The position numbers were made by a program, and so were the translations under genes. Positions 3,204 to 16,877 of a DNA stretch of 16,877 nucleotides are shown here, piece by piece. The DNA comes from a virus (taxonomy: Duplodnaviria > Heunggongvirae > Uroviricota > Caudoviricetes): the IMG/VR virus record IMGVR_UViG_2531839147_000004. One strand, given 5' to 3'. The notes under the pieces are model-generated. The model was not told the DNA's origin. It made no database searches and worked only from the letters and a program-made list of their open reading frames with translations. Every line of letters begins with the position of its first letter. Positions within the stretch are counted from its first letter, which is position 1.

Positions 3204-5207
3204 ATGATTATGAGTGAAAATGATACAACCCCAAAGAAGTCTACAAGCCAGATTAACAAAGCGGTATTCTTTACATCTGCTTTGCTAATTTTCCTTCTTG
3301 TCGCCTTTGCCGCCGTATTCCCGGATGTCGCCGACAAAAATTTTAAACTACTTCAGCAACAAATCTTCACGAATGCCAGCTGGTTCTACATACTTGCTGT
3401 GGCCCTGATTTTACTGAGCGTCACGTTCCTTGGACTCTCACGTTACGGTGATATAAAGCTGGGCCCAGACCATGCGCAGCCTGATTTCAGCTACCACTCC
3501 TGGTTCGCGATGCTTTTTTCGGCAGGGATGGGGATCGGCCTGATGTTCTTTGGCGTTGCCGAACCTGTGATGCATTATCTTTCGCCACCTGTCGGCACTC
3601 CAGAGACCGTTGCGGCAGCGAAGGAAGCCATGCGCCTGACGTTCTTCCACTGGGGTCTGCACGCATGGGCAATTTATGCCATCGTGGCGCTGATTCTGGC
3701 CTTTTTCAGTTACCGTCACGGTCTGCCTTTAACGCTGCGTTCTGCGCTCTATCCCATTATCGGCGATCGCATTTACGGGCCTATAGGCCACGCGGTTGAT
3801 ATCTTCGCCGTGATAGGCACTGTCTTTGGCGTTGCAACATCGCTGGGTTACGGTGTATTGCAGGTGAATGCCGGTTTGAACCATCTTTTCGGCGTGCCCA
3901 TCAATGAAACGGTACAGGTCATTTTGATCGTGGTCATCACGGGGTTAGCGACGATTTCGGTGGTGTCCGGCCTGGACAAGGGAATACGCATCCTGTCTGA
4001 GCTTAATCTGGGCCTGGCGGTGTTGCTCCTGGCGCTGGTCTTGTGCCTGGGTCCCACTGTGCTTCTGCTGAAGTCATTTGTGGAAAATACGGGTGGTTAT
4101 CTGTCGGAACTGGTGAGTAAAACGTTCAACCTTTACGCGTATGAACCCAAGTCGAGCAACTGGCTGGGGGGCTGGACATTATTATACTGGGGATGGTGGC
4201 TTTCATGGTCGCCGTTTGTAGGTATGTTCATTGCACGCGTTTCCCGCGGCAGGACAATTCGTGAGTTCGTGACTGGCGTGTTGTTTGTTCCCGCCGGCTT
4301 TACGCTCATGTGGATGACGGTGTTTGGAAACAGCGCCATCTATCTCATCATGAACCAGGGCGCCACTGACCTCGCCAATACCGTTCAGCAGGATGTTGCG
4401 CTTGCCCTGTTTAATTTCCTGGAGCATTTCCCGTTCTCTTCCGTGCTGTCATTCATTGCAATGGCGATGGTCATCGTCTTCTTTGTAACGTCTGCTGATT
4501 CGGGGGCAATGGTTGTGGATACTCTGGCATCAGGTGGGGTGGCAAACACGCCCGTCTGGCAGCGAATTTTCTGGGCATCGCTCATGGGCGTTGTTGCTAT
4601 TGCCCTGCTGATCGCAGGGGGGCTGAGTGCGTTGCAAACCGTAACGATAGCGAGTGCATTGCCCTTCTCAGTTATCTTATTAATATCCATATACGGACTG
4701 TTAAAAGCCCTGCGTCGGGATTTGACCAAGCGTGAAAGCCTTAGCATGGCGACTATTGCTCCTACGGCTGCACGTAACCCAATTCCCTGGCAGAGAAGGT
4801 TACGCAATATCGCGTATTTGCCGAAGCGCTCTCTTGTGAAACGTTTTATGGACGACATTATCCAACCCGCCATGACGCTGGTTCAGGAGGAACTTAACAA
4901 GCAGGGAACGATAAGCCACATCAGTGACGCCGCCGAGGATCGTATTCGCCTTGAAGTCGATTTGGGCAACGAGCTGAATTATATATATGAAGTGAGGCTT
5001 CGCGGGTATAACTCACCGACCTTCGCGCTCGCTGCGCTGGATAATGATGAGCAGCAGAGTGAACAACATCGATATTATCGCGCTGAAGTCTATCTCAAAG
5101 AGGGCGGCCAAAATTATGATGTAATGGGCTGGAATCAGGAACAGCTGATTAATGACATACTGGACCAGTACGAAAAACACCTGCACTTCCTGCATCTGGT
5201 TCGTTAA
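3204..5207 (+). CDS. BCCT-family transporter, BetT-like (choline / glycine-betaine type) with long cytoplasmic C-terminal tail
   Basis: 667 aa; BCCT tryptophan signature GGWTLLYWGWWLSWSPF; overall layout and C-terminal tail (...DILDQYEKHLHFLHL) parallel E. coli BetT as I recall it. Confidence 0.9.
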   Translation: MIMSENDTTPKKSTSQINKAVFFTSALLIFLLVAFAAVFPDVADKNFKLLQQQIFTNASWFYILAVALILLSVTFLGLSRYGDIKLGPDHAQPDFSYHSWFAMLFSAGMGIGLMFFGVAEPVMHYLSPPVGTPETVAAAKEAMRLTFFHWGLHAWAIYAIVALILAFFSYRHGLPLTLRSALYPIIGDRIYGPIGHAVDIFAVIGTVFGVATSLGYGVLQVNAGLNHLFGVPINETVQVILIVVITGLATISVVSGLDKGIRILSELNLGLAVLLLALVLCLGPTVLLLKSFVENTGGYLSELVSKTFNLYAYEPKSSNWLGGWTLLYWGWWLSWSPFVGMFIARVSRGRTIREFVTGVLFVPAGFTLMWMTVFGNSAIYLIMNQGATDLANTVQQDVALALFNFLEHFPFSSVLSFIAMAMVIVFFVTSADSGAMVVDTLASGGVANTPVWQRIFWASLMGVVAIALLIAGGLSALQTVTIASALPFSVILLISIYGLLKALRRDLTKRESLSMATIAPTAARNPIPWQRRLRNIAYLPKRSLVKRFMDDIIQPAMTLVQEELNKQGTISHISDAAEDRIRLEVDLGNELNYIYEVRLRGYNSPTFALAALDNDEQQSEQHRYYRAEVYLKEGGQNYDVMGWNQEQLINDILDQYEKHLHFLHLVR

Positions 5208-5215
5208 CAGCAACA

Positions 5216-5243
5216 TGCCGCCACAGAGGCGGCATTTATTTAT
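5216..5243 (+). terminator. Rho-independent terminator after BCCT gene
   Basis: Stem TGCCGCC / GGCGGCA (7 bp), loop ACAGA, followed by TTTATTTAT. Confidence 0.55.
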
Positions 5244-5386
5244 CCCGGCTGCAATATGAGGGAATGCAGAATGATTTCACGCTGGAAATGGATGCTGAAG
5301 CAGACATTTAAAAACTATGGTTCAGGGCAACGTTATTCGCAATTGTCGCAATAATAACGGCCCTTTTATCAATTCTTTTTAAATCA

Positions 5387-6547
5387 ATGATACCTGAGTC
5401 GGTTTCCGTGAAGGTTGGTGCGGAAGCAGTCGATAACATTCTGAACATACTGGCATCGAGTATGCTGGCAGTGACCACATTTTCGCTGAGCATCATGGTC
5501 ACAGCCTACGGTTCAGCCACTACTAATGTGACTCCCAGAGCTACTCGTTTAGTTGTTGAAGACGTCACCACACAAAATGTACTGGCCACCTTCATCGGTT
5601 CTTTTCTCTTCAGTCTGGTAGGGATTATTGCCCTCAATATGGGAGCTTATGGAGAAAGGGGGAGAGTCATTTTATTCATTGTAACACTGGTTGTCATTGC
5701 CTTAATCCTCATCACATTGCTTCGCTGGATACAGCATTTGACCTCTCTGGGGAGGGTTGGTGAGACAACGGCAAAAGTAGAACAGGCGGCCATCGAAACA
5801 TTTATTGCGAGAGCAAGAAATCCCTGTCTCGGCGGATATCCATGGCTTGAGAACAATGAACAGCCGAAAGGAACGGTTGCAGTTTATCCGAAAAAGATTG
5901 GCTATGTTGAATATGTTGATATGGTGAAACTCAGCAAGCTGCTGACCAATGATCCCCGTCATGTATACCTCGTGGCGCAGCCGGGCAGTTTCATACATCC
6001 GTCCACGCCAGTTTTGTACCTGAGTCAGGGCCAGGAGTCATCAATCAGCACCGATTTACTTGAGACGATTATTGTCTCGGATGTACGTTCATTTGCTCAG
6101 GACCCCCGATTTTGTCTTAGCGTCATGGCCGAAATAGCCTGCCGAGCCCTTTCCCCCGCAGTGAACGATCCTGGAACCGCCATTGATGTCATTGGCAGAG
6201 GTGTACGTATACTTTCCGCTTACGCGCAGAATAAATCTGATGAAATAGAAGTGAAATATCCTTCTGTACATGTTGCACCACTTCAGAATAACGATCTACT
6301 TGAAGACTTTTTCTCACCTGTTGCGCGCGATGGTGCCAGTATGAGGGAAATTCAGATAAGGGTACTTAAAGGACTGTCGATGCTGAGTAAGGGTTGGCCT
6401 GGAATTTTTGCTGAAGCCGCACAAACCCTAGCATTTGAAACATTAGAGCATGCTACTCGTGCTGACCATATAGATTCTGACAGATATCTAATAAAATCAA
6501 TTTATTATAATTTATTTAGTGGCGAAGATTCTAATAAAAAACCATAG
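5387..6547 (+). CDS. Membrane protein of unknown function (DUF2254-like), N-terminus probably disrupted by a frameshift
   Basis: Three predicted TM helices then a soluble C-terminal domain. A well-placed SD+ATG at 5271 opens a 27-codon ORF in another frame; the main frame is open from 5312 and encodes a further TM helix before the first ATG. Confidence 0.55.
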   Translation: MIPESVSVKVGAEAVDNILNILASSMLAVTTFSLSIMVTAYGSATTNVTPRATRLVVEDVTTQNVLATFIGSFLFSLVGIIALNMGAYGERGRVILFIVTLVVIALILITLLRWIQHLTSLGRVGETTAKVEQAAIETFIARARNPCLGGYPWLENNEQPKGTVAVYPKKIGYVEYVDMVKLSKLLTNDPRHVYLVAQPGSFIHPSTPVLYLSQGQESSISTDLLETIIVSDVRSFAQDPRFCLSVMAEIACRALSPAVNDPGTAIDVIGRGVRILSAYAQNKSDEIEVKYPSVHVAPLQNNDLLEDFFSPVARDGASMREIQIRVLKGLSMLSKGWPGIFAEAAQTLAFETLEHATRADHIDSDRYLIKSIYYNLFSGEDSNKKP

Positions 6548-6609
6548 TTGCGGAGCAAGCGATACGGTTGTTGGCAAGTCAAGGGCAAAGCATTCGCGTG
6601 AGAGTGGGC

Positions 6610-6633
6610 GTCTGCTTTGTGCCAGAAGCGGAC
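6610..6633. repeat. Dyad element copy B: GTCTGC-N12-GCGGAC
   Basis: GTCTGC TTTGTGCCAGAA GCGGAC in the convergent intergenic region between the DUF2254-like gene and the LysR gene. Confidence 0.5.
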
Positions 6634-6677
6634 ATACGTAACTTATGATACGCATCGCCAATCATCCGTTTCAAACA

Positions 6678-7559
6678 TCAACGCGGAAACGTTTTAAGAA
6701 TGTAATCCCGAACATAGGCGGTTCGGCTGTTATTAGCCGTCCTTTTGTTCCAGACCAGATAAAGATGATTAGTCGGAGCGAGGTCTGCAGGTGTCACTGA
6801 AATCAGGCGACCACTTTTCAGGTCATTGTCACAGTGATAATCCGGCAGCACTGTCCACCCGTGGCCGTCACAGACCAAGTCGCGGATAATACGTAAATCC
6901 GGAATGGTGAATGTAGCCTGCATCTCAGGGGCTCTCTGAAACATGGAGGCCCAGAGCGCTCTAATCAGTGGCAACTCTTCGTCATAAGCAATCAGCGGTA
7001 ATGAGGCAAGCGTTTCAGCACCAGGTTCTGATCCGATGATCTCTGACATGGCGGGAGCATGAACAAGGAGCATGCGTTCAGTCAGTAGATGTGCATAGCC
7101 GTACAGACGGTCATCAGGCATAGATGCGGTAACAGCGAGATCGGCGCTCCCGTCATGCAAAAGGGAATAAATACGTTGCTTATTGCCGGTATGAAAGCGT
7201 AGGCGATACCCCTCCTTCATTAGTGGAGCCATTACTGTCCCAAGCCGGGAATGAATAAAATCTGGCGGTCCTGCCAGATTAATTGTTCCCCCACGTACAG
7301 AGCCTGACCGGAAAGAGGACAGCTTTTCTTCCAGACCATCAATGAAGGGTGAAACTGAGCGGGCAAGCTCATCCGCAGCTTCGGTTGCCGTCACGCCTCT
7401 GGCCTGCCTGATAAACAGACGCTTACCAACCAGAGTCTCAAGAGACTGGATATGCTGTGACGCCGCGGGCTGAGTGATGCCCAGTAGTTCTGCCGCCTTT
7501 GAAAAGGAGCCAGAGCGATAGGCCTCAAGAAACGTTCGCAGATGGCTCAGATGGCTCAT
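6678..7559 (-). CDS. LysR-family transcriptional regulator
   Basis: 293 aa; N-terminal LysR HTH (LRTFLEAYRSGSFSKAAELLGITQPAASQHIQSLE); start ATG overlaps the stop of the upstream ChaC-like gene (ATGA at 7556-7559). Confidence 0.9.
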   Translation of the reverse strand: MSHLSHLRTFLEAYRSGSFSKAAELLGITQPAASQHIQSLETLVGKRLFIRQARGVTATEAADELARSVSPFIDGLEEKLSSFRSGSVRGGTINLAGPPDFIHSRLGTVMAPLMKEGYRLRFHTGNKQRIYSLLHDGSADLAVTASMPDDRLYGYAHLLTERMLLVHAPAMSEIIGSEPGAETLASLPLIAYDEELPLIRALWASMFQRAPEMQATFTIPDLRIIRDLVCDGHGWTVLPDYHCDNDLKSGRLISVTPADLAPTNHLYLVWNKRTANNSRTAYVRDYILKTFPR

Positions 7560-8248
7560 AGTGAAGCGCCTCGCTGATGAAGTTTATCGTTACAGGGAGC
7601 CTCATGCAGAGCAAGGGCCAGTTCACTCACGTAATCATCCCGTATTCCCAACGCACCCAGAGTGGCCTGCAGTTTCCATACATAATCTGCATTCGTGCCA
7701 ATGTCTCCACGGGCAGATGCGATGCTCAACGCTACGGTCGCTGTAAGATTGTCCTGTTCATAATGCGGATGCAGTCTGTCTGATACGAAAGCCAGCGCCT
7801 GAATTTCCTTACCGTTTCCTAGCGAAACGTCTGCCCAGACCGGACGGTAAAGACCGGTTATCATCTCGCGCGTCCAGACAATTTCCAGCTCATTAATAAG
7901 AGTCGATTCCGGCAGTCTGAACGCAATACCTTCGGTAATTCCACCTTCGTCGAGCGATAACATCCTGCCGGGGACATCAGGAGTCGCTCGTCCGGATATC
8001 AAACGAATGCAGAAACTGCGCTGCCATCCTTTCAGACGGGCCCGTTGCATTTCTTCAATCGCCAGCACGGGATTCCACATCAATGACCCGTAGGCAAATA
8101 TCCAGACAGGAGCACCCGTCGGGCGCTCCTCCAGAGTAGAGTTCATTGATGCGCGTATTTTTTCAGCGTCCCAGAGCATATTCGCCGGGAGCAGCGCTTC
8201 ATGCACCCTGACAAATGTGCCATTAAGCATATTTTCACGGGTAAGCAT
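7556..8248 (-). CDS. ChaC-like gamma-glutamylcyclotransferase (glutathione-specific GGCT family)
   Basis: 230 aa; hallmark VWIFAYGSLMWNP motif and overall co-linearity with E. coli ChaC as I recall it; SD GGGAGG upstream. Confidence 0.85.
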   Translation of the reverse strand: MLTRENMLNGTFVRVHEALLPANMLWDAEKIRASMNSTLEERPTGAPVWIFAYGSLMWNPVLAIEEMQRARLKGWQRSFCIRLISGRATPDVPGRMLSLDEGGITEGIAFRLPESTLINELEIVWTREMITGLYRPVWADVSLGNGKEIQALAFVSDRLHPHYEQDNLTATVALSIASARGDIGTNADYVWKLQATLGALGIRDDYVSELALALHEAPCNDKLHQRGASL

Positions 8249-8259
8249 ATAACCTCCCT

Positions 8260-9459
8260 TTACTGGCCTACGATTTTAACCTGTTGAAATTTACGACTGT
8301 GGCTGCGACGGATTTGTGCAAGCAGCAACAGCAGGCCGAGCAGAGAAACAATCGCACCGCTGATACCGGTATACACGATACCGGCGTGGCTTATAGTAAT
8401 GCTGCCCAGTACTGATCCCAGCGCTATACCTGAGTTGAAGCCCGCAATATTCAGGCCGGCAGCAACACCATGCGCATGAGGAGCATGTTGCTCAGCGACA
8501 CCAATCAGACGGGCCTGCAGTGCCGGCACTGCGGCAAATGTCACCATACCCAGCAGCGCAACCAGAATGCCCATGCTCACCGGTGAGGATGACAGCAGCC
8601 ACATACCAAGCACGACAACAACAATGCCGCTAATGATGAGTATATTGGCACGATTAACCCCCATGCTGTCGGTAAGTTTCCCACCAAGAATATTACCTAC
8701 CGCAGCTGTAATACCGTAAACCAGCATAAACAGACTCACCGTTGCTCCGGTAACCCCTGTCACCTGCGTCAGAATAGGTGCGATAAAGGTGTAATCCGTA
8801 AACGAGCCTGCATACGCCAGCACCGTAACCAGCGCGCCGGCCAGCAACTTACGGTTAAACAGCATGCCGATATTCTGCATTGCTGAGTCACTATGTTCAC
8901 CGGGCACGCTGCGTACGGGATCTTTCATACCGAACAACAGTCCAAGGAATCCGAACGCGCCAAAAGCGGCAATAGCGCCGAGAACTGGACGCCATGAGAC
9001 CACCCCCCCCAACCATGTACTCAGCGGTACGCCGATTGCCATCGCCAGAGTAAAGCCACCAAATACCACAGCCACCGCTCTGCCTGCTTTACCCGGTCCA
9101 GCAAGACGAGCTGCGGTACTGGATGCCGCAGCCAGAAACAGGCCGTGTCCCAGACCAGCAATGAACCGCGCTAACAGGAGCTGAGGTAATGTGGCTGCAA
9201 ACGCGGCCGCCAGACTACCGGCAGTAAACACAACGGCAGTTGTAAGCATTACATTTTTCCGGCTCCAGCTTGCTGTCAGCGCAGACAGTACGGGTGCCGC
9301 GAACGTTGCCCCCAGTGCATAGGTTGTAACCGCTGCCCCGGTCTGCTCCACACCCACACACAACCCCTGAGCCATAACGTCTGTCAGCCCAATGGGGACA
9401 AATTCCGCGAGTCCGAGCGCAAAGGCACTGATAGTAAACACATAAATAACAAATGGCAT
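8260..9459 (-). CDS. MFS transporter (12-TM, YdhP / drug-sugar efflux-like)
   Basis: 399 aa, highly hydrophobic with repeated TM segments; N-terminal LGLAEFVPIGL motif typical of this MFS subgroup; SD CAGGAG before ATG; first gene of the MFS-ChaC-LysR operon. Confidence 0.85.
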   Translation of the reverse strand: MPFVIYVFTISAFALGLAEFVPIGLTDVMAQGLCVGVEQTGAAVTTYALGATFAAPVLSALTASWSRKNVMLTTAVVFTAGSLAAAFAATLPQLLLARFIAGLGHGLFLAAASSTAARLAGPGKAGRAVAVVFGGFTLAMAIGVPLSTWLGGVVSWRPVLGAIAAFGAFGFLGLLFGMKDPVRSVPGEHSDSAMQNIGMLFNRKLLAGALVTVLAYAGSFTDYTFIAPILTQVTGVTGATVSLFMLVYGITAAVGNILGGKLTDSMGVNRANILIISGIVVVVLGMWLLSSSPVSMGILVALLGMVTFAAVPALQARLIGVAEQHAPHAHGVAAGLNIAGFNSGIALGSVLGSITISHAGIVYTGISGAIVSLLGLLLLLAQIRRSHSRKFQQVKIVGQ

Positions 9460-11934: not shown

Positions 11935-12224
11935 TGGTGAATTTACGTAAAGCGGCTAAAGGCCAGATGTGCCAGATCAGAATCCCTGGCTACTGCAATC
12001 ACAATCCCGAAACCTCTGTGCTGGCGCATTACAGGCTGGCGGGGACGTGCGGAACAGCGACAAAACCACACGATATGCAGGCGGCGATAGCCTGTAGCTC
12101 ATGCCACGATCTAATCGACGGGCGGGTAAAAACCAGCGATTACACCAAAGAAGAATTGCGCCTGATGCATGCTGAAGGGGTTTTTCGCACACAAGAAATC
12201 TGGAGAAAGAAAGGTCATTTATGA
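11934..12224 (+). CDS. YbcO-like (DUF1364) Cys/His-rich putative nuclease of the lambdoid nin region
   Basis: 96 aa; Cys/His pattern CQIRIPGYC...H...C...CSSCHDLID matches the DLP12 YbcO family as I recall it; translationally coupled on both sides. Confidence 0.6.
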   Translation: MVNLRKAAKGQMCQIRIPGYCNHNPETSVLAHYRLAGTCGTATKPHDMQAAIACSSCHDLIDGRVKTSDYTKEELRLMHAEGVFRTQEIWRKKGHL

Positions 12225-12763
12225 TTTACCCAACGAATACAGGAAAAAGCGGAGAACACCTTCGCCTCACCACGCTGGAAAGTGTCTGGATTCAGGGAAA
12301 ACTACGTATGTGGGGGCGCTGGTCGTATATTGGCGGTGGCAGGTCAGGGAATATGTTCAATCAGTTGTTGGCATCCAAAAAACTGACGAAAACAGCCATT
12401 AATGAAGCCCTGCGTAGAATGAAAAAAGCGGGAATAGAGAAAGCTGAGCTGGAAGCGTTTTTGCGAGAGATGATCAACGGCAAGCAAAAGAGCTGGCTGG
12501 CGCATTGTACTGATGCAGAGGCGTTATGTATTGATCGAGTCATAAGTGAGGTGCTGGCAGAGCATCCAGGATTGATTTGCATTCTCCGGCAACGCTATGA
12601 AGGGCGGGGGATGACTAAGCGCAAAATGGCTGAATTGCTAAATGATGGACACCCAGAGTGGTGTTTTAGCACATGCGAAAAACGGATTGCTAATTGGTTA
12701 GCTGTTGCTGAGTATGCCCTATATATTCCCATGCGTGAATCATTTGCTGAGAAAATGGCTTGA
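12221..12763 (+). CDS. Putative late-gene antiterminator Q-like protein (DUF1133-type)
   Basis: 180 aa; last gene before a terminator-bearing spacer and the lysis cassette, the position of Q in lambdoid phages; ATGA overlap with the upstream gene. Confidence 0.5.
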   Translation: MIYPTNTGKSGEHLRLTTLESVWIQGKLRMWGRWSYIGGGRSGNMFNQLLASKKLTKTAINEALRRMKKAGIEKAELEAFLREMINGKQKSWLAHCTDAEALCIDRVISEVLAEHPGLICILRQRYEGRGMTKRKMAELLNDGHPEWCFSTCEKRIANWLAVAEYALYIPMRESFAEKMA

Positions 12764-12839
12764 TTTCTTACGTATAAACTGCTTCAATTTTGCTATGCTT
12801 CGCAAAGCTGTATCGCGAGGCGGATTGCAGACATGGACA

Positions 12840-12860
12840 TCGTAAAAAAACCGCTTAATG
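12840..12860 (+). terminator. Candidate tR'-like terminator downstream of the Q-like gene
   Basis: A7 - ACCGC TTAAT GCGGT - T7; short GC stem flanked by A and T runs. Confidence 0.4.
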
Positions 12861-13189
12861 CGGTTTTTTTACGTCAGGAAAGCAGGGGAGAATGCTGCTA
12901 GTTGGGCAACTGGTCTTTCTGCTCCAAATTATAACAGAGACCAGTTATAGTTTCGGTGCTGTGTTTTTTTACAATATTGTGATAACACATTGCTGGCGGG
13001 AGTTTTGATATTTCTTGGCAGGGGCTGATGATGCGTTATCCTGATGTCGTCAACTCATATAAAATGAGATGAGAGATCATTGCAGGGTGGTTTGTAATTC
13101 GCTGTTTAGCGGGACAATATGTTGTCTGATACAAGACACCCGACGCCTCAGATTACTATAATAAAGACGAAGCATCCTTTGTATTGACC

Positions 13190-13215
13190 AACCGCCTGTT
13201 TAGGCGGTTCTTTTT
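13190..13215 (+). terminator. Rho-independent terminator in the Q-to-lysis spacer
   Basis: Stem AACCGCCT / AGGCGGTT (8 bp), loop GTTT, followed by CTTTTT; TATAAT at 13157-13162 about 30 bp upstream. Confidence 0.5.
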
Positions 13216-13805
13216 GGACTGGTTTATTGTATGCCAAATGATTATTAAAAAGGTTGTGTTAATAACAAAATCCGAAATAATATGCCTGCATATTTTTATC
13301 TTGCTTATATTCTGCATATTGTGCATAGCAGGCTCATCCCTGCAATCAAAACTGTATGATGAGTTATTTTTTTTTCCTTTTTTCCAGTCATCTGATGATG
13401 ACCTGCTTCTTTTTAATCCGGATCGACATCAGTTTTTTAAGATAATTCCTGCGAGTTATATGCATAAATACCACAAACTCCGCATTTTATGTGGTTGGGA
13501 GTTGCCGGGCGCGCAGTGAGTTTGCTAAGAAAACTCCTGCATGGTGAATCCCCCTGTGCGGTGGGGTGATACCATTAACCTTTTCTGTCGCCGACAGGTA
13601 TCACGAACATTTTGTTCACCGGGAGGCACCCGGCACCATGCACTTCAATAGATTCTCTCCACATTATGGATATTCTTTCAGAATATCCCACGCAGACTTT
13701 GTGTAAATGTTAACAAATGTGCGTTTTATTTGATCTGATTCGCTGTTTGAGCGTCCAAAACAACGGTATATATAATCCTTTACTATATGACATATGTGAG
13801 GAAAA

Positions 13806-14234
13806 ATGGGTTTTCGTAGCGCATCAATTCTTACGTTGATTATTAGTGGGATTATTATCGGGTGCACTGATGCTGTATCGACAAATTATCATGACCGTAC
13901 ATCATATTACTCCGATAAAGCAATAGAGACACAGTATGTGAGTTCATCTGAACGTACTTCTGATGTTAGTGAGGATATCCGTCTGTATGCCCATCAAATC
14001 AAGAGCGCCATCGAAAAACAGTTCGGGGATGCGAGTAAGTATTCAGGAAAAGAGTGTACACTGAGAATGCATATGGCCCCGAATGGCCTTCTACTGGAGG
14101 TTAAAAGAGAAAGTGGAGACCTCGATTTATGTCGTGAAGCGATGAATGCGATAAAGAATGCTGATATACCTGCCCCCCCTTCGCCGGAAGTATATAAAGT
14201 ATTTCAAAATGGGGTGCTGGATTTTAAACCCTGA
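13806..14234 (+). CDS. Outer-membrane lipoprotein with TolA C-terminal (domain III)-like domain, paralog 1
   Basis: Signal peptide with lipobox IIGC then Thr; C-terminal ~85 aa align by eye to TolA domain III (QIKSAIE..., GKECTLRM, APNGLLL, GD..LC, IPAPPSPEVYKVF, ending VLDFKP); SD GAGGA before ATG; AT-rich. Confidence 0.7.
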   Translation: MGFRSASILTLIISGIIIGCTDAVSTNYHDRTSYYSDKAIETQYVSSSERTSDVSEDIRLYAHQIKSAIEKQFGDASKYSGKECTLRMHMAPNGLLLEVKRESGDLDLCREAMNAIKNADIPAPPSPEVYKVFQNGVLDFKP

Positions 14235-14384
14235 TATTTATTGTTTTGTAATAAACGGTTTCGGCTTAGGTTTGTTCTGACACAGCTACGGCACTGAGCT
14301 AAATTTAGCGGATAGTCAGCTCTGAGCCAGTGGCGGACGTAACAACTACTATTGCTGAGATTTTAATGGATTGAGGAGCAAGAA

Positions 14385-14780
14385 GTGGGATTAAAGAAAA
14401 TCGTTATGTTGACTTTTTGGGTCGGTTTTGTTGCGGGATGCACACCTTTACACCCTTCAGATTGCCACAAAACTACTGCTACAGGTAGTTGCAGTTCAGG
14501 ACGCTGGGATGATCAGGATGAATGGGGGGCGCAAGCGCGGGGAATCAGAGCTGCAATTAATGCCAAACTTGATGAGCCGCATAACTGGAAAGGGAAAAAA
14601 TGCAGGTTGCATATGGAATTCTCTCAGGATGGCACGGCGTTAAAAATATCTACCAGTAACGGTGATAAAGCCTATTGCGAAGCGATAAAGTCCGCAGCTC
14701 ATAAAGCCAAATTTCCGGCCTTCAACAATCCGGAAGTCTACAGAGATTTTCAGAAATCTGGCTTTGACATGCGAGGTTAG
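14385..14780 (+). CDS. Outer-membrane lipoprotein with TolA C-terminal-like domain, paralog 2 (GTG start)
   Basis: SD GAGGAG 6 nt upstream of GTG; lipobox VAGC then Thr; C-terminal domain shares the GK.C.L.M...DG...GD..C...P...PEVY..FQ...D pattern with paralog 1 (about one third identical by manual alignment). Confidence 0.7.
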   Translation: MGLKKIVMLTFWVGFVAGCTPLHPSDCHKTTATGSCSSGRWDDQDEWGAQARGIRAAINAKLDEPHNWKGKKCRLHMEFSQDGTALKISTSNGDKAYCEAIKSAAHKAKFPAFNNPEVYRDFQKSGFDMRG

Positions 14781-14915
14781 CTCTTCAATTACTATATCTC
14801 ATTCATAGCAAACTGACAGATTTGATGATGTTCTATATACGAAACCTGTGATGTCAAGTCTGAGCTAATACAAATAAACATAATATCAGAGAAATACATT
14901 TTATTAGCTCGCTAC

Positions 14916-14938
14916 GGCGAGCTTTTTATATTGCATCG
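14916..14938 (+). terminator. Rho-independent terminator closing the lipoprotein unit
   Basis: Perfect 7-bp stem AGCTCGC / GCGAGCT, loop TACG, followed by TTTTT. Confidence 0.6.
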
Positions 14939-15031
14939 TCTCCAGCATATATATCAATTAAGGCTCTGATTGATGTGTCTGAAAGCCTACACATAATAAC
15001 TATGCCATCCGTTCCGTGCGGAGGTGAGGCT

Positions 15032-15247
15032 ATGAAATCCATGGACAAAATTTCAACAGACATTGCCTACGGCACCTCCGCAGGCAGTGCTGGCTACTGG
15101 TTTTTACAGTTGCTCGATAGAGTAACTCCGTCACAGTGGGCTGCAATCGGTGTGCTGGGTAGTCTGGTATTTGGCCTGCTGACGTACCTGACAAACCTTT
15201 ATTTCAAGATTAAAGAAGATAAGCGCAAGGCTGCGAGAGGTGAATAA
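15032..15247 (+). CDS. S: Pinholin, phage 21 S-type, with dual-start motif (MKSM...)
   Basis: 71 aa, [71 protein letters not shown], near-identical in layout to S21 as I recall it; SD GGAGGTGA; stop overlaps the next ATG (TAATG). The ORF-track start at 14975 is an upstream in-frame extension. Confidence 0.9.
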
Positions 15248-16877
15248 TGCCTCCATCATTACGAAAAGTCGTTGCTGCTGCTATTGGTGGCGGAGCAATT
15301 GCTATAGCATCAGTGTTAATCACTGGCCCAAGTGGTAACGATGGTCTGGAAGGTGTCAGCTACATACCATACAAAGATATTGTTGGTGTATGGACTGTAT
15401 GTCACGGGCATAACGGGAAATACACCGCACAGGATGCAACGACAGCACAGAAAGGGATAATCCAGCTAAGCAGCGCGACCAACAGCACGTCTGAAACGCT
15501 GGCGGCAACGCCAAAGGCAGTAAAATCAGCCTATGACAATGCAGAGAAACGTCTGCAGAAAGACCAGAACGGCGCTGATATACCCGATAAGGGACGCTTC
15601 CTGAACAACATTAACGCGGTCAGTAAAACAGACTTTGCTGATAAGCGTGGTATGCGTTATGTGCGGGTTAACGCTCCTGCAGGTGCAACATCTGGAAAAT
15701 ATTACCCTGTTGTTGTTATGCGTTCTGCTGGCTCAGTAAGCGAACTGGCATCAAGGGTCATTATCACCACGGCAACGCGAACCGCAGGCGATCCGATGAA
15801 TAACTGCGAGTTTAACGGATTTGTTATGCCTGGTGGCTGGACTGACAGGGGGCGTTATGCTTATGGAATGTTCTGGCAATATCAAAACAATGAACGAGCC
15901 ATCCACTCAATAATGATGAGTAATAAGGGCGATGATTTGCGCTCTGTGTTCTATGTTGATGGCGCTGCTTTCCCTGTTTTTGCGTTTATCGAAGATGGCC
16001 TGTCAATATCCGCACCTGGTGCTGATCTCGTTGTTAATGATACGACCTATAAGTTTGGGGCAACAAATCCAGCGACTGAATGTATCGCGGCGGACGTTAT
16101 CCTTGATTTTAAGAGTGGGCGTGGTTTTTATGAGTCTCATTCGTTAATCGTTAACGATAACTTGTCGTGCAAAAAACTTTTTGCCACAGACGAAATTGTA
16201 GCGCGTGGTGGTAATCAGATTCGAATGATAGGTGGGGAGTATGGGGCATTATGGCGTAATGATGGCGCTAAAACTTACCTGCTGCTTACCAATCAAGGTG
16301 ATGTTTATGGTGGATGGAATACATTAAGACCGTTTGCTATTGATAACGCAACCGGCGAACTGGTTATTGGAACCAAGCTGTCTGCAAGTCTGAACGGTAA
16401 CGCATTGACAGCAACAAAGCTGCAAACGCCAAGACTGGTTTCTGGGGTTGAGTTTGATGGTTCAAAAGATATTACTTTAACCGCCGCGCATGTGGCTGCT
16501 TTTGCCAGAAGGGCAACGGATACATATGCCGATGCGGATGGTGGCGTTCCCTGGAATGCCGAATCAGGCGCTTACAATGTCACCCGCTCTGGCGACAGCT
16601 ATATTCTGGTTAACTTCTATACCGGAGTCGGAAGTTGCCGGACCCTGCAGATGAAGGCGCATTACAGAAATGGTGGTCTGTTCTACCGTTCTTCAAGAGA
16701 CGGTTATGGTTTTGAGGAAGACTGGGCAGAAGTTTATACCTCGAAAAATCTTCCACCAGAAAGCTACCCAGTCGGCGCACCAATCCCGTGGCCATCAGAT
16801 ACCGTTCCGTCTGGTTATGCCCTGATGCAGGGGCAGACTTTTGACAAATCTGCTTACCCGAAACTTGCAGCCGCTTA
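15247..16877 (+). CDS. Chimeric ORF: SAR-endolysin N-terminus (phage 21 R-like, ~54 codons) fused in frame to lambdoid side-tail-fibre sequence; 3' end beyond the window
   Basis: Begins [55 protein letters not shown] (SAR helix plus start of lysozyme domain), then continues [15 protein letters not shown]... through ...[29 protein letters not shown], typical of Stf-type fibres. I translated the frame by hand and found no stop to the window end. Not in the ORF track because it is open-ended. Confidence 0.7.

Follow-up and report, generated by a model that had tools for sequence, protein, structure and literature searches.

An in-frame endolysin–tail fibre chimera, the probable scar of a large deletion in an Escherichia coli cryptic prophage of the Rac type, and its recurrently used breakpoint in rrrD

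How does the start of a lysis gene come to be joined in frame to the end of a tail fibre gene, and what could the product of such a gene still do? The question is raised by a 16,877-nt stretch of Caudoviricetes DNA, IMG/VR record IMGVR_UViG_2531839147_000004, which was analysed at its full length and is called the window below. A reading frame that opens at the stop codon of a phage 21-type pinholin gene begins there as rrrD, the gene of a signal-anchor-release (SAR) endolysin, and continues as stf, the gene of a lambdoid side tail fibre. We consider this chimera to be, with good probability, a decay scar of a Rac-type cryptic prophage, in which a deletion of about 26 kb joined rrrD codon 55 to stf codon 497. 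The rrrD breakpoint itself belongs to a small set of nucleotides of that gene that are used recurrently. The features that make up the chimera and its start are the following.

15032–15247, + strand: phage 21-type class II holin (pinholin) of 71 aa with an MKSM dual-start motif (it begins MKSMDK); translation, PF04971 (E 2.2e-34) and PHROG holin families.
15236–15242, + strand: Shine-Dalgarno-like AGAGGTG, 5 nt upstream of the chimera ATG and inside the 3' end of the holin gene; read from the sequence, with the same arrangement in intact essD-rrrD.
15247–15412, + strand: rrrD-derived segment, codons 1–55, with the SAR membrane anchor; 55/55 aa as in RrrD of strain PK8241, DNA 99.7% identical to locus L009 through 15420.
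15411–15412, no strand: crossover dinucleotide TA, common to both parents (rrrD nt 165–166; stf codon 496/497); three-way alignment and native parental contexts.
15411–16877, + strand: stf-derived segment, Stf residues 497 to about 984 of 1176; DNA 99.7% identical to locus L005.
15439–15561, + strand: phage tail fibre repeat PF03406, chimera aa 65–105; Pfam, and a match to residues 110–172 of phage Mu S.
16042–16341, + strand: T4 gp34-like trimerisation domain of the shaft, aa 266–365; PF21446 (E 2e-27), PDB 4UXE and 5NXF.
16534–16877, + strand: gp37_C domain (aa 430–499) and the start of the collar and T4 gp37-like receptor-binding tip; PF12604, PF07484, PDB 2XGF.

The holin is annotated in RefSeq as class II holin/EssD, and PF04971 carries the description 'Bacteriophage P21 holin S'. 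As an earlier, sequence-only reading of this DNA (the original prediction) had stated, the chimera starts at the pinholin stop: its ATG (15247–15249) shares one A with the TAA at 15245–15247 in the overlap TAATG. The same 1-nt overlap is found in intact essD/rrrD pairs, so the stop/start coupling was inherited and not made by the fusion. The frame stays open for 543 codons (15247–16877) up to the end of the window, and in complete genomes it runs for 735 aa to a stop, which bears out the predicted in-frame passage through the junction. In these genomes tfaR (PF02413 match) starts at the stop of the chimera, outside the window, and pinR lies 1.3 kb downstream of it. RefSeq lists the product as WP_370613481.1, 'tail fiber protein'.

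Chimera residues 1–61 match phage 21 lysozyme (PDB 3HDE) and RrrD (4ZPU) with E-values of about 1e-30, and residues 1–55 are identical to phage 21 R (3HDE) at 54 of 55 positions. Residues 8–26 form the weakly hydrophobic, Gly/Ala-rich N-terminal segment of a SAR domain, and the overlap with an upstream pinholin gene, as is the arrangement of SAR endolysin genes, is present as well. The predicted phage 21-type SAR endolysin N-terminus is therefore genuine; its length is 55 residues, not the roughly 54 first proposed. The DNA of the stf part is 98% identical to K-12 stfR and continues for 192 codons past the window end in complete genomes. All four families of an Stf shaft and receptor-binding tip (PF03406, PF21446, PF12604 and PF07484) match the chimera. 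Among PDB entries, phage Mu fibre protein S matches residues 62–124 and 416–510, T4 gp34 matches residues 309–380, and the T4 gp37 receptor-binding tip (2XGF) covers residues 505–735 with an E-value of 2e-84; the tip carries seven HxH motifs, which lie beyond the window end.

The original prediction had called for an alignment to intact R and Stf and for a comparison with a strain carrying the intact prophage; both were carried out and placed the parents and the junction. The first parent is represented by strain PK8241, which carries a near-intact sister prophage: its RrrD is identical to chimera residues 1–55 (55/55), and window positions 11965–15420, that is, up to the junction, are 99.7% identical to it. 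Upstream, this prophage is arranged as in the window (cargo island, DUF1367-YbcO-Q-like genes, two TolA-like genes and holin), and after the holin it continues with rrrD, rzoD, trkG, ynaK, terminase, portal, capsid, tail, J, lom, stf and tfaR. The second parent is represented by the enterotoxigenic E. coli isolate L3_E36, whose intact Stf has 1176 residues, of which 497–1176 equal chimera residues 56–735 at 680 of 680 positions; the side tail fibre origin that had been proposed for the remainder of the frame is thus confirmed. In the Rac-type prophage of L3_E36 a Mu-like prophage with an invertible fibre segment lies directly upstream of J (locus L008, 10265–47000, NZ_LR882997.1), and the Rac-type head genes resume beyond it.

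In the three-way DNA alignment the window equals rrrD through 15412 and stf from 15411, which puts the crossover next to the position near 15410 that had been proposed for the switch; in the protein, the join reads CHGH/NGKYTAQ. The surroundings of the junction are loosely alike in the two parents (GTATGTCACGGGCATACAGGAAAA in rrrD and GTATGACCTGGCTAACGGGAAAT in stf), and the break in intact Stf lies between two tandem PF03406 fibre repeats. Measured on PK8241, the lost interval amounts to about 26 kb, of which 24.7 kb are intervening genes, while 0.33 kb belong to rrrD and 1.5 kb to stf. It comprises the rest of rrrD, Rz/Rz1, the cargo gene trkG, terminase, the head and tail genes, J and lom, as well as the 1.5 kb at the 5' end of stf. 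The predicted deletion of the remaining endolysin, Rz/Rz1, terminase, head and tail genes and 5' stf matches what PK8241 has between rrrD and stf.

The window corresponds to the region between recE and uspF in E. coli strain 165 and 16 other finished genomes, to which its 16,877 bases are 99.96% identical throughout. The prophage that holds it is of the Rac type, occupies the ttcA/uspF locus and is cryptic, in line with what had been predicted: in the complete carrier genomes it is without Rz/Rz1, terminase, head and tail genes, and no J, tape-measure, tube or head genes are left between holin and pinR. A join with a mere 2-bp overlap is worth checking for an assembly or sequencing chimera, but nothing in favour of such an artefact was found. 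The identical junction was found in 17 of 5426 complete E. coli genomes, with 100% identity over a 2.2-kb query around it, and the exact chimera protein on 73 contigs (NCBI, ENA, Logan). These 17 finished genomes and 73 protein-bearing contigs rule out an assembly chimera, and that the fusion arose in sequencing or assembly is close to inconceivable. The carriers were finished independently and come from several countries and hosts. At least two of them, MS6192 and MS6193, belong to sequence type 101 (ST101; 10.1101/860726), and the spread of the junction is narrow and clonal-looking.

What the product can be is limited by what was lost. Intact RrrD matches PF00959 over aa 34–156 with 155 bits, whereas the chimera reaches 24.7 bits and holds true lysozyme sequence at residues 34–55 only; about 22 of roughly 123 GH24-domain residues are kept, so that the domain is incomplete. 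The catalytic positions of R21, which we take to be E35, D44 and T50, fall within the retained residues. With the lysozyme fold gone, muralytic activity is not to be expected from the predicted protein. On the fibre side, the tail-attachment domain PF08400, residues 1–134 of intact Stf, is absent from the chimera, which starts at Stf residue 497, and the chimera is not encoded together with the tail genes of a virion that it could join. Since PF08400 is absent and the prophage has no tail genes, the predicted product cannot be a virion fibre. Judged by its sequence, then, the chimera belongs to neither parent family: it can be neither a lysozyme nor a virion fibre. With phage 21 R/RrrD (3HDE, 3HDF, 4ZPU) it shares the first 55 residues, the SAR anchor, the catalytic-triad positions and the pinholin overlap, while fibre sequence takes the place of about 110 missing residues of the GH24 fold. 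With lambdoid Stf/StfR (2XGF tip) and Tfa it shares the C-terminal 680 residues with repeat, trimerisation domain, collar and HxH needle tip, and the tfaR gene, while it is without PF08400 and 496 shaft residues and has no tail to join.

Whether the chimera is made at all depends on late transcription, on which two further features bear.

12221–12763, + strand: intact Q-like late antiterminator (DUF1133); full-length Pfam PF06576 match, weak Phage_antitermQ match, PHROG 'anti-termination protein Q-like' (E 6e-79).
14906–14930, + strand: terminator-like hairpin with a T-run between the TolA-like genes and the holin; consensus scan only, no evidence of function.

As the Q-like antiterminator is intact, late transcription towards holin and chimera is conceivable. 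A promoter-like site upstream of the holin (14970–14997) comes from a consensus scan only, with no evidence of function. In 2 of the 17 carriers an IS2 lies between the second TolA-like gene and the holin (locus L010, 1751–2979, NZ_AP038228.1; and NZ_CM188248.1), and in these the holin and the chimera are cut off from upstream late transcription. A fusion of PhoA to the phage 21 SAR domain has been reported to undergo export and to give a mostly uncleaved, membrane-tethered precursor (PMC8385771). Given this export and the intact Shine-Dalgarno sequence, coupled start and SAR anchor, a tethered fibre fragment facing the periplasm is mechanistically possible if late transcription occurs, and we regard such a fragment as a possible product. 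The engineered SAR(R21)-PhoA protein (PMC8385771) resembles the chimera in carrying the same SAR on a foreign passenger and in being exported, mostly tethered and uncleaved; it differs in that its passenger is a monomeric periplasmic enzyme, while that of the chimera is a 680-residue trimeric fibre, whose folding with Tfa is normally cytoplasmic.

The most probable account is that of a decay scar. The join would be illegitimate (non-homologous), with 2 bp of perfect and further interrupted microhomology (GTATG..GGC.TA.CGGGAAA), and the deletion would have begun at a recurrently broken or recombined site in rrrD. It would have taken the catalytic body of the endolysin, Rz/Rz1, trkG, terminase, the head and tail genes, J and lom, together with the part of stf that serves tail attachment; through the loss of these genes the prophage can no longer lyse the cell enzymatically or build virions. 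The chimera would be a by-product without a selected function. If late transcription reached it, the inherited Shine-Dalgarno sequence, stop/start overlap and SAR would leave a fibre fragment of 680 residues tethered to the periplasmic side of the inner membrane, where the fragment, apart from the cytoplasmic Tfa chaperone, would most likely be misfolded or degraded. Several points weigh against this account. The stretch between rrrD and stf may already have suffered deletions before the final join, so that only the final junction represents one event. Among the other events with this breakpoint, several are singletons in draft or read-archive assemblies and are absent from complete genomes. 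The 735-codon frame is intact in every carrier, though the carriers are too similar for this to have weight, and the chimera may conceivably still have a selected function.

Such a function has been considered in the form of a domesticated gene, in which the SAR anchor brings a trimeric, receptor-binding fibre fragment to the envelope to block or sense a receptor, with superinfection exclusion of OmpC- or LPS (lipopolysaccharide)-binding phages or a modulation of pinholin-triggered events as the outcome. The start, Shine-Dalgarno sequence, overlap, SAR, complete tip with its seven HxH motifs and downstream tfaR are all intact, the export and tethering of PhoA by the phage 21 SAR domain (PMC8385771) fits, and a second in-frame chimera, RrrD(1–66)::J, exists on at least 1000 contigs. 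However, an in-frame join has a one-in-three chance, and many out-of-frame rrrD truncations exist, such as a 74-aa form in 493 blocks of the sequence index. The position in the late operon, behind terminators and beside a lethal pinholin, the severing of upstream transcription by IS2 in 2 of 17 carriers, and the cytoplasmic, Tfa-dependent folding of a passenger that would be periplasmic also speak against domestication, as does the absence of a purifying-selection signal, the carriers being essentially identical. We therefore hold domestication to be very improbable. The chimera is most likely a fresh example of a well-known thing, a chimeric reading frame left by prophage decay, without a function.

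Similar scars are found in other prophages. In a Qin-type prophage a truncated stf comes after rrrQ, and beside ssrA lies a prophage in which a truncated tail protein comes after a partial lysozyme gene. In DLP12-type prophages, RrrD(1–66) is in frame with J residues 3–1132, giving a protein of 1196 aa that occurs as the exact sequence on at least 1000 contigs; it is WP_001556898.1, annotated only as 'host specificity protein J' (locus L007, 5001–8591, NZ_CP116191.1; also L030, L032, L051, L095 and L139–L142). Like the chimera, it is an independent in-frame fusion of a SAR to a tail protein, with its crossover TA within ATA/C (the slash marks the break) at rrrD nt 198–199; unlike it, it has a nearly full-length J as partner and stands on at least 1000 contigs as against 73. 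DLP12-type prophages also carry a terminase gpA::fibre chimera, a 348-aa reading frame followed by tfa (L012, 6404–7450, CP062889.1), with a terminase gpA N-terminal match and fibre collar and repeat matches. Independent lysis-to-fibre deletions are thus a common decay pattern (L002, L003, RrrD(1–66)::J, gpA::Stf). The cryptic prophage remnants of K-12 (Rac rzpR', DLP12 aaaD/tfaD, Qin stfQ') likewise have large internal deletions that took out the morphogenetic genes and spared the right-end stf'/tfa/pin module, while in the present case the join is in frame to a translated, export-competent N-terminus and gives a full reading frame instead of an annotated pseudogene. In two decayed DLP12-type prophages a McrBC-like / AAA_5-nSTAND defence pair lies directly downstream of the truncated tfa end (L015, 5436–8288; L144, 2826–3381).

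Many truncated RrrD variants turned up when the 55 N-terminal residues were used as a protein query, and several of them diverge exactly after H55. In the DNA of these variants rrrD ends at one and the same nucleotide, ...TGTCACGGGCATA, while the partner is different each time. The left breakpoint, rrrD nt 165–166 (...GGGCATA/C), is shared by at least nine other rearrangements with different partners besides that of the window, and 10 event types were counted at nt 165–167, the Stf junction included. The partners at nt 166 are a position upstream of Rz (a 338-bp internal deletion, present in finished genomes and in 493 blocks of the sequence index), an internal position of J in frame, the end of J just before lom, the head-protease gene, ybcY at the right end of DLP12, a position upstream of ylcI/nu1 (one finished genome) and a chromosomal site; four nt-166 partners are singletons from draft or read-archive assemblies. 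For a J fusion with TAC microhomology (P0018, 9 contigs) the junction was worked out by hand from the protein sequence alone. On one contig codon 36 of lambda P is joined to rrrD from the same TA, and the site thus also serves as a right-hand endpoint. The crossover holds TA in all eight readable partners of nt 165–166, that of the window and seven besides. The junctions were found at the following loci.

rrrD nt 165–166: window 15411–15412; L012, L013, L014, L015, L016, L017, L031 and L146.
rrrD nt 198–201: L007, L052, L191, L144 and L145.
rrrD nt 282: L143 and L119.

For the first protein list the query had its end at the breakpoint, and the list held only matches shorter than about 1.75 times the query length, with long fusions outside it; it may therefore lean to breaks near the query end, for which a second query ending at aa 85 served as control. 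A sample from IMG/VR, anchored on rrrD nt 146–165 and nt 109–125, was meant as less biased. Among its roughly 200 loci all seven distinct deletion junctions fell at nt 165–166 (two types), nt 198–199 (three) and nt 282 (two), each of which reads ATA/C; the absolute numbers for the hotspot are small. Positions nt 200 and 201 account for two further junctions. At the two sites other than nt 165–166, three junctions were readable, of which L007 and L143 hold TA, and L144 (nt 201) crosses within ATACC. The junctions of L013, L014 and L017, each on single draft or Logan contigs, were not found in complete genomes. Scans of the control TA sites at nt 143 and 152 gave only chance matches to unrelated contigs and carry little weight. 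A simple 'ATAC' rule fails in IMG/VR, where no junctions were found at the ATAC sites of nt 118 and 123, so that ATAC alone is not sufficient. The original prediction was silent on the recurrence of the breakpoint, and literature searches turned up neither this chimera nor a hotspot in rrrD. Draft contigs of different isolates end exactly at rrrD nt 165 or 166 (L148, L149, L150), which is consistent with intact and broken rrrD copies in one genome forking the assembly graph.

That the breakpoint belongs to a small set of recurrently used rrrD nucleotides is an observation; what makes them so is a more tentative matter. We incline only in part to the view that the ATA/C positions (nt 165–166, 198–201 and 282) form a sequence-specific fragile or recombinogenic site that is acted on by an unrecognised enzymatic process, for instance a staggered nuclease or recombinase or a strongly site-preferring excision of insertion sequences (IS). 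With the same reserve, deletions may repeatedly set out from these sites to either side and end at partners that contain TA and lie as far as tens of kb away.

In one version, an IS at rrrD nt 165–166 would have been removed with its 26-kb flank by transposase and the IS-excision enhancer (IEE), and repeated excisions from one insertion site would explain the shared endpoint. According to the account in PMC9943667, IEE is an end-joining polymerase of the PrimPol type, and the excision is microhomology-mediated, with no IS remaining afterwards, and removes anything between a few nt and more than 40 kb of adjacent DNA; IEE is present in more than 30% of E. coli assemblies (PMC9943667). So described, the process (Kusumoto 2011, as reported in PMC9943667) resembles the present case in its fixed endpoint without a remaining element, its short microhomology and its reach of up to more than 40 kb, while no IS with a matching target duplication was found at the exact rrrD site. 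Also in its favour, an IS2 follows rrrD nt 165 in the same Rac-type prophage of one draft genome, IS2 and IS629-like insertions occupy more than 15 positions in the 5' part of rrrD, and deletions extend both ways from the site. Yet IS2 inserts all along rrrD, whereas the deletions cluster at three sites; IS2 abuts T165, whereas A166 is kept in 9 of 10 junctions; the 5-bp duplication of IS2 does not match the TA junctions; and no IS duplicating TA or ATA at the site was seen in about 200 IMG/VR contigs. IS excision is accordingly an unlikely cause. A staggered, TA-centred cut fits the geometry equally well. Here a nuclease or recombinase, for instance a serine recombinase or GIY-YIG-type endonuclease at work on pseudo-sites, would cut ATA/C with a 2-nt stagger, and the ends would be joined to TA sites elsewhere. 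The nucleotide-exact endpoints at three ATA/C sites, the TA in the partner at all eight readable nt 165–166 crossovers, and the use of one site as left or right endpoint agree with such an enzyme. Still, no candidate enzyme was found, signatures of Din-invertase, Xer, RusA, IS5 and gyrase were absent from the sites on inspection, the ATAC positions at nt 118 and 123 are without events in IMG/VR, and the partner sites are alike only in TA and a loose G-richness, which leaves this explanation doubtful too.

Several specific candidates were rejected. Quasi-sites of the Pin/Din serine invertases (Pin/Gin/Hin/Cin) were looked for by inspection, and AAACC NN GGTTT half-sites were absent from both parental sites, though pinR is nearby. 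For XerCD, there is a GCATA that resembles a XerC arm, and GGTGCAAATAA stands in one partner, but the XerD arm is absent and the likeness was judged coincidental. RusA (which cuts 5' of CC), RuvC, the IS5 target YTAR and the gyrase consensus do not fit across the sites, again on inspection only. Breakage at a hairpin was dismissed as well: the inverted repeat TGTATG-N7-CATACA lies at nt 150–168, but the single-stranded DNA folds no better than shuffled sequence (z −1.6, −1.6, +1.1), and the structure is not common to the three rrrD sites. Rpn nucleases have been reported to be non-specific (PMC5350276).

The first 100 codons of rrrD hold IS2 in both orientations at more than 15 positions and IS629-like elements at codons 36, 42, 47 and 50 (proteins P0001–P0227; L147, 5166–5240); rrrD is an IS magnet.

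For annotation, what RefSeq calls a 'tail fiber protein' is a hybrid in which an endolysin signal-anchor is joined to a fibre fragment, encoded by a dead prophage, and the chimera shows exactly how, in an ST101-associated lineage, a Rac-type phage was disarmed. More important than the chimera itself is that its breakpoint recurs, the sole aspect that deserves follow-up. If deletions do start at a few exact nucleotides of an endolysin gene, prophage domestication would be partly directed and not random, and the process would disarm lambdoid prophages at the lysis gene, helping to make harmless cryptic elements.

Elsewhere in the window, two paralogous genes for TolA C-terminal-domain proteins (13806–14234 and 14385–14780; PF06519, both PHROG 5772) lie between the Q-like gene and the holin. 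In Shiga toxin (Stx) phages the toxin genes sit at this Q-to-holin position, as the TolA-like pair does here, and the TolA-like proteins might interfere with Tol-dependent entry of colicins or phages. Upstream of the first of them, at 13509–13695 on the + strand, is a match to the small RNA STnc100 (Rfam RF02076, 86.6 bits against a gathering score of 47). A cargo island at 3204–9459, inside the prophage between the replication and nin regions, encodes a BCCT transporter, a DUF2254 protein, a LysR regulator, a gamma-glutamylcyclotransferase and an MFS transporter, and is also present in the near-intact relative PK8241.

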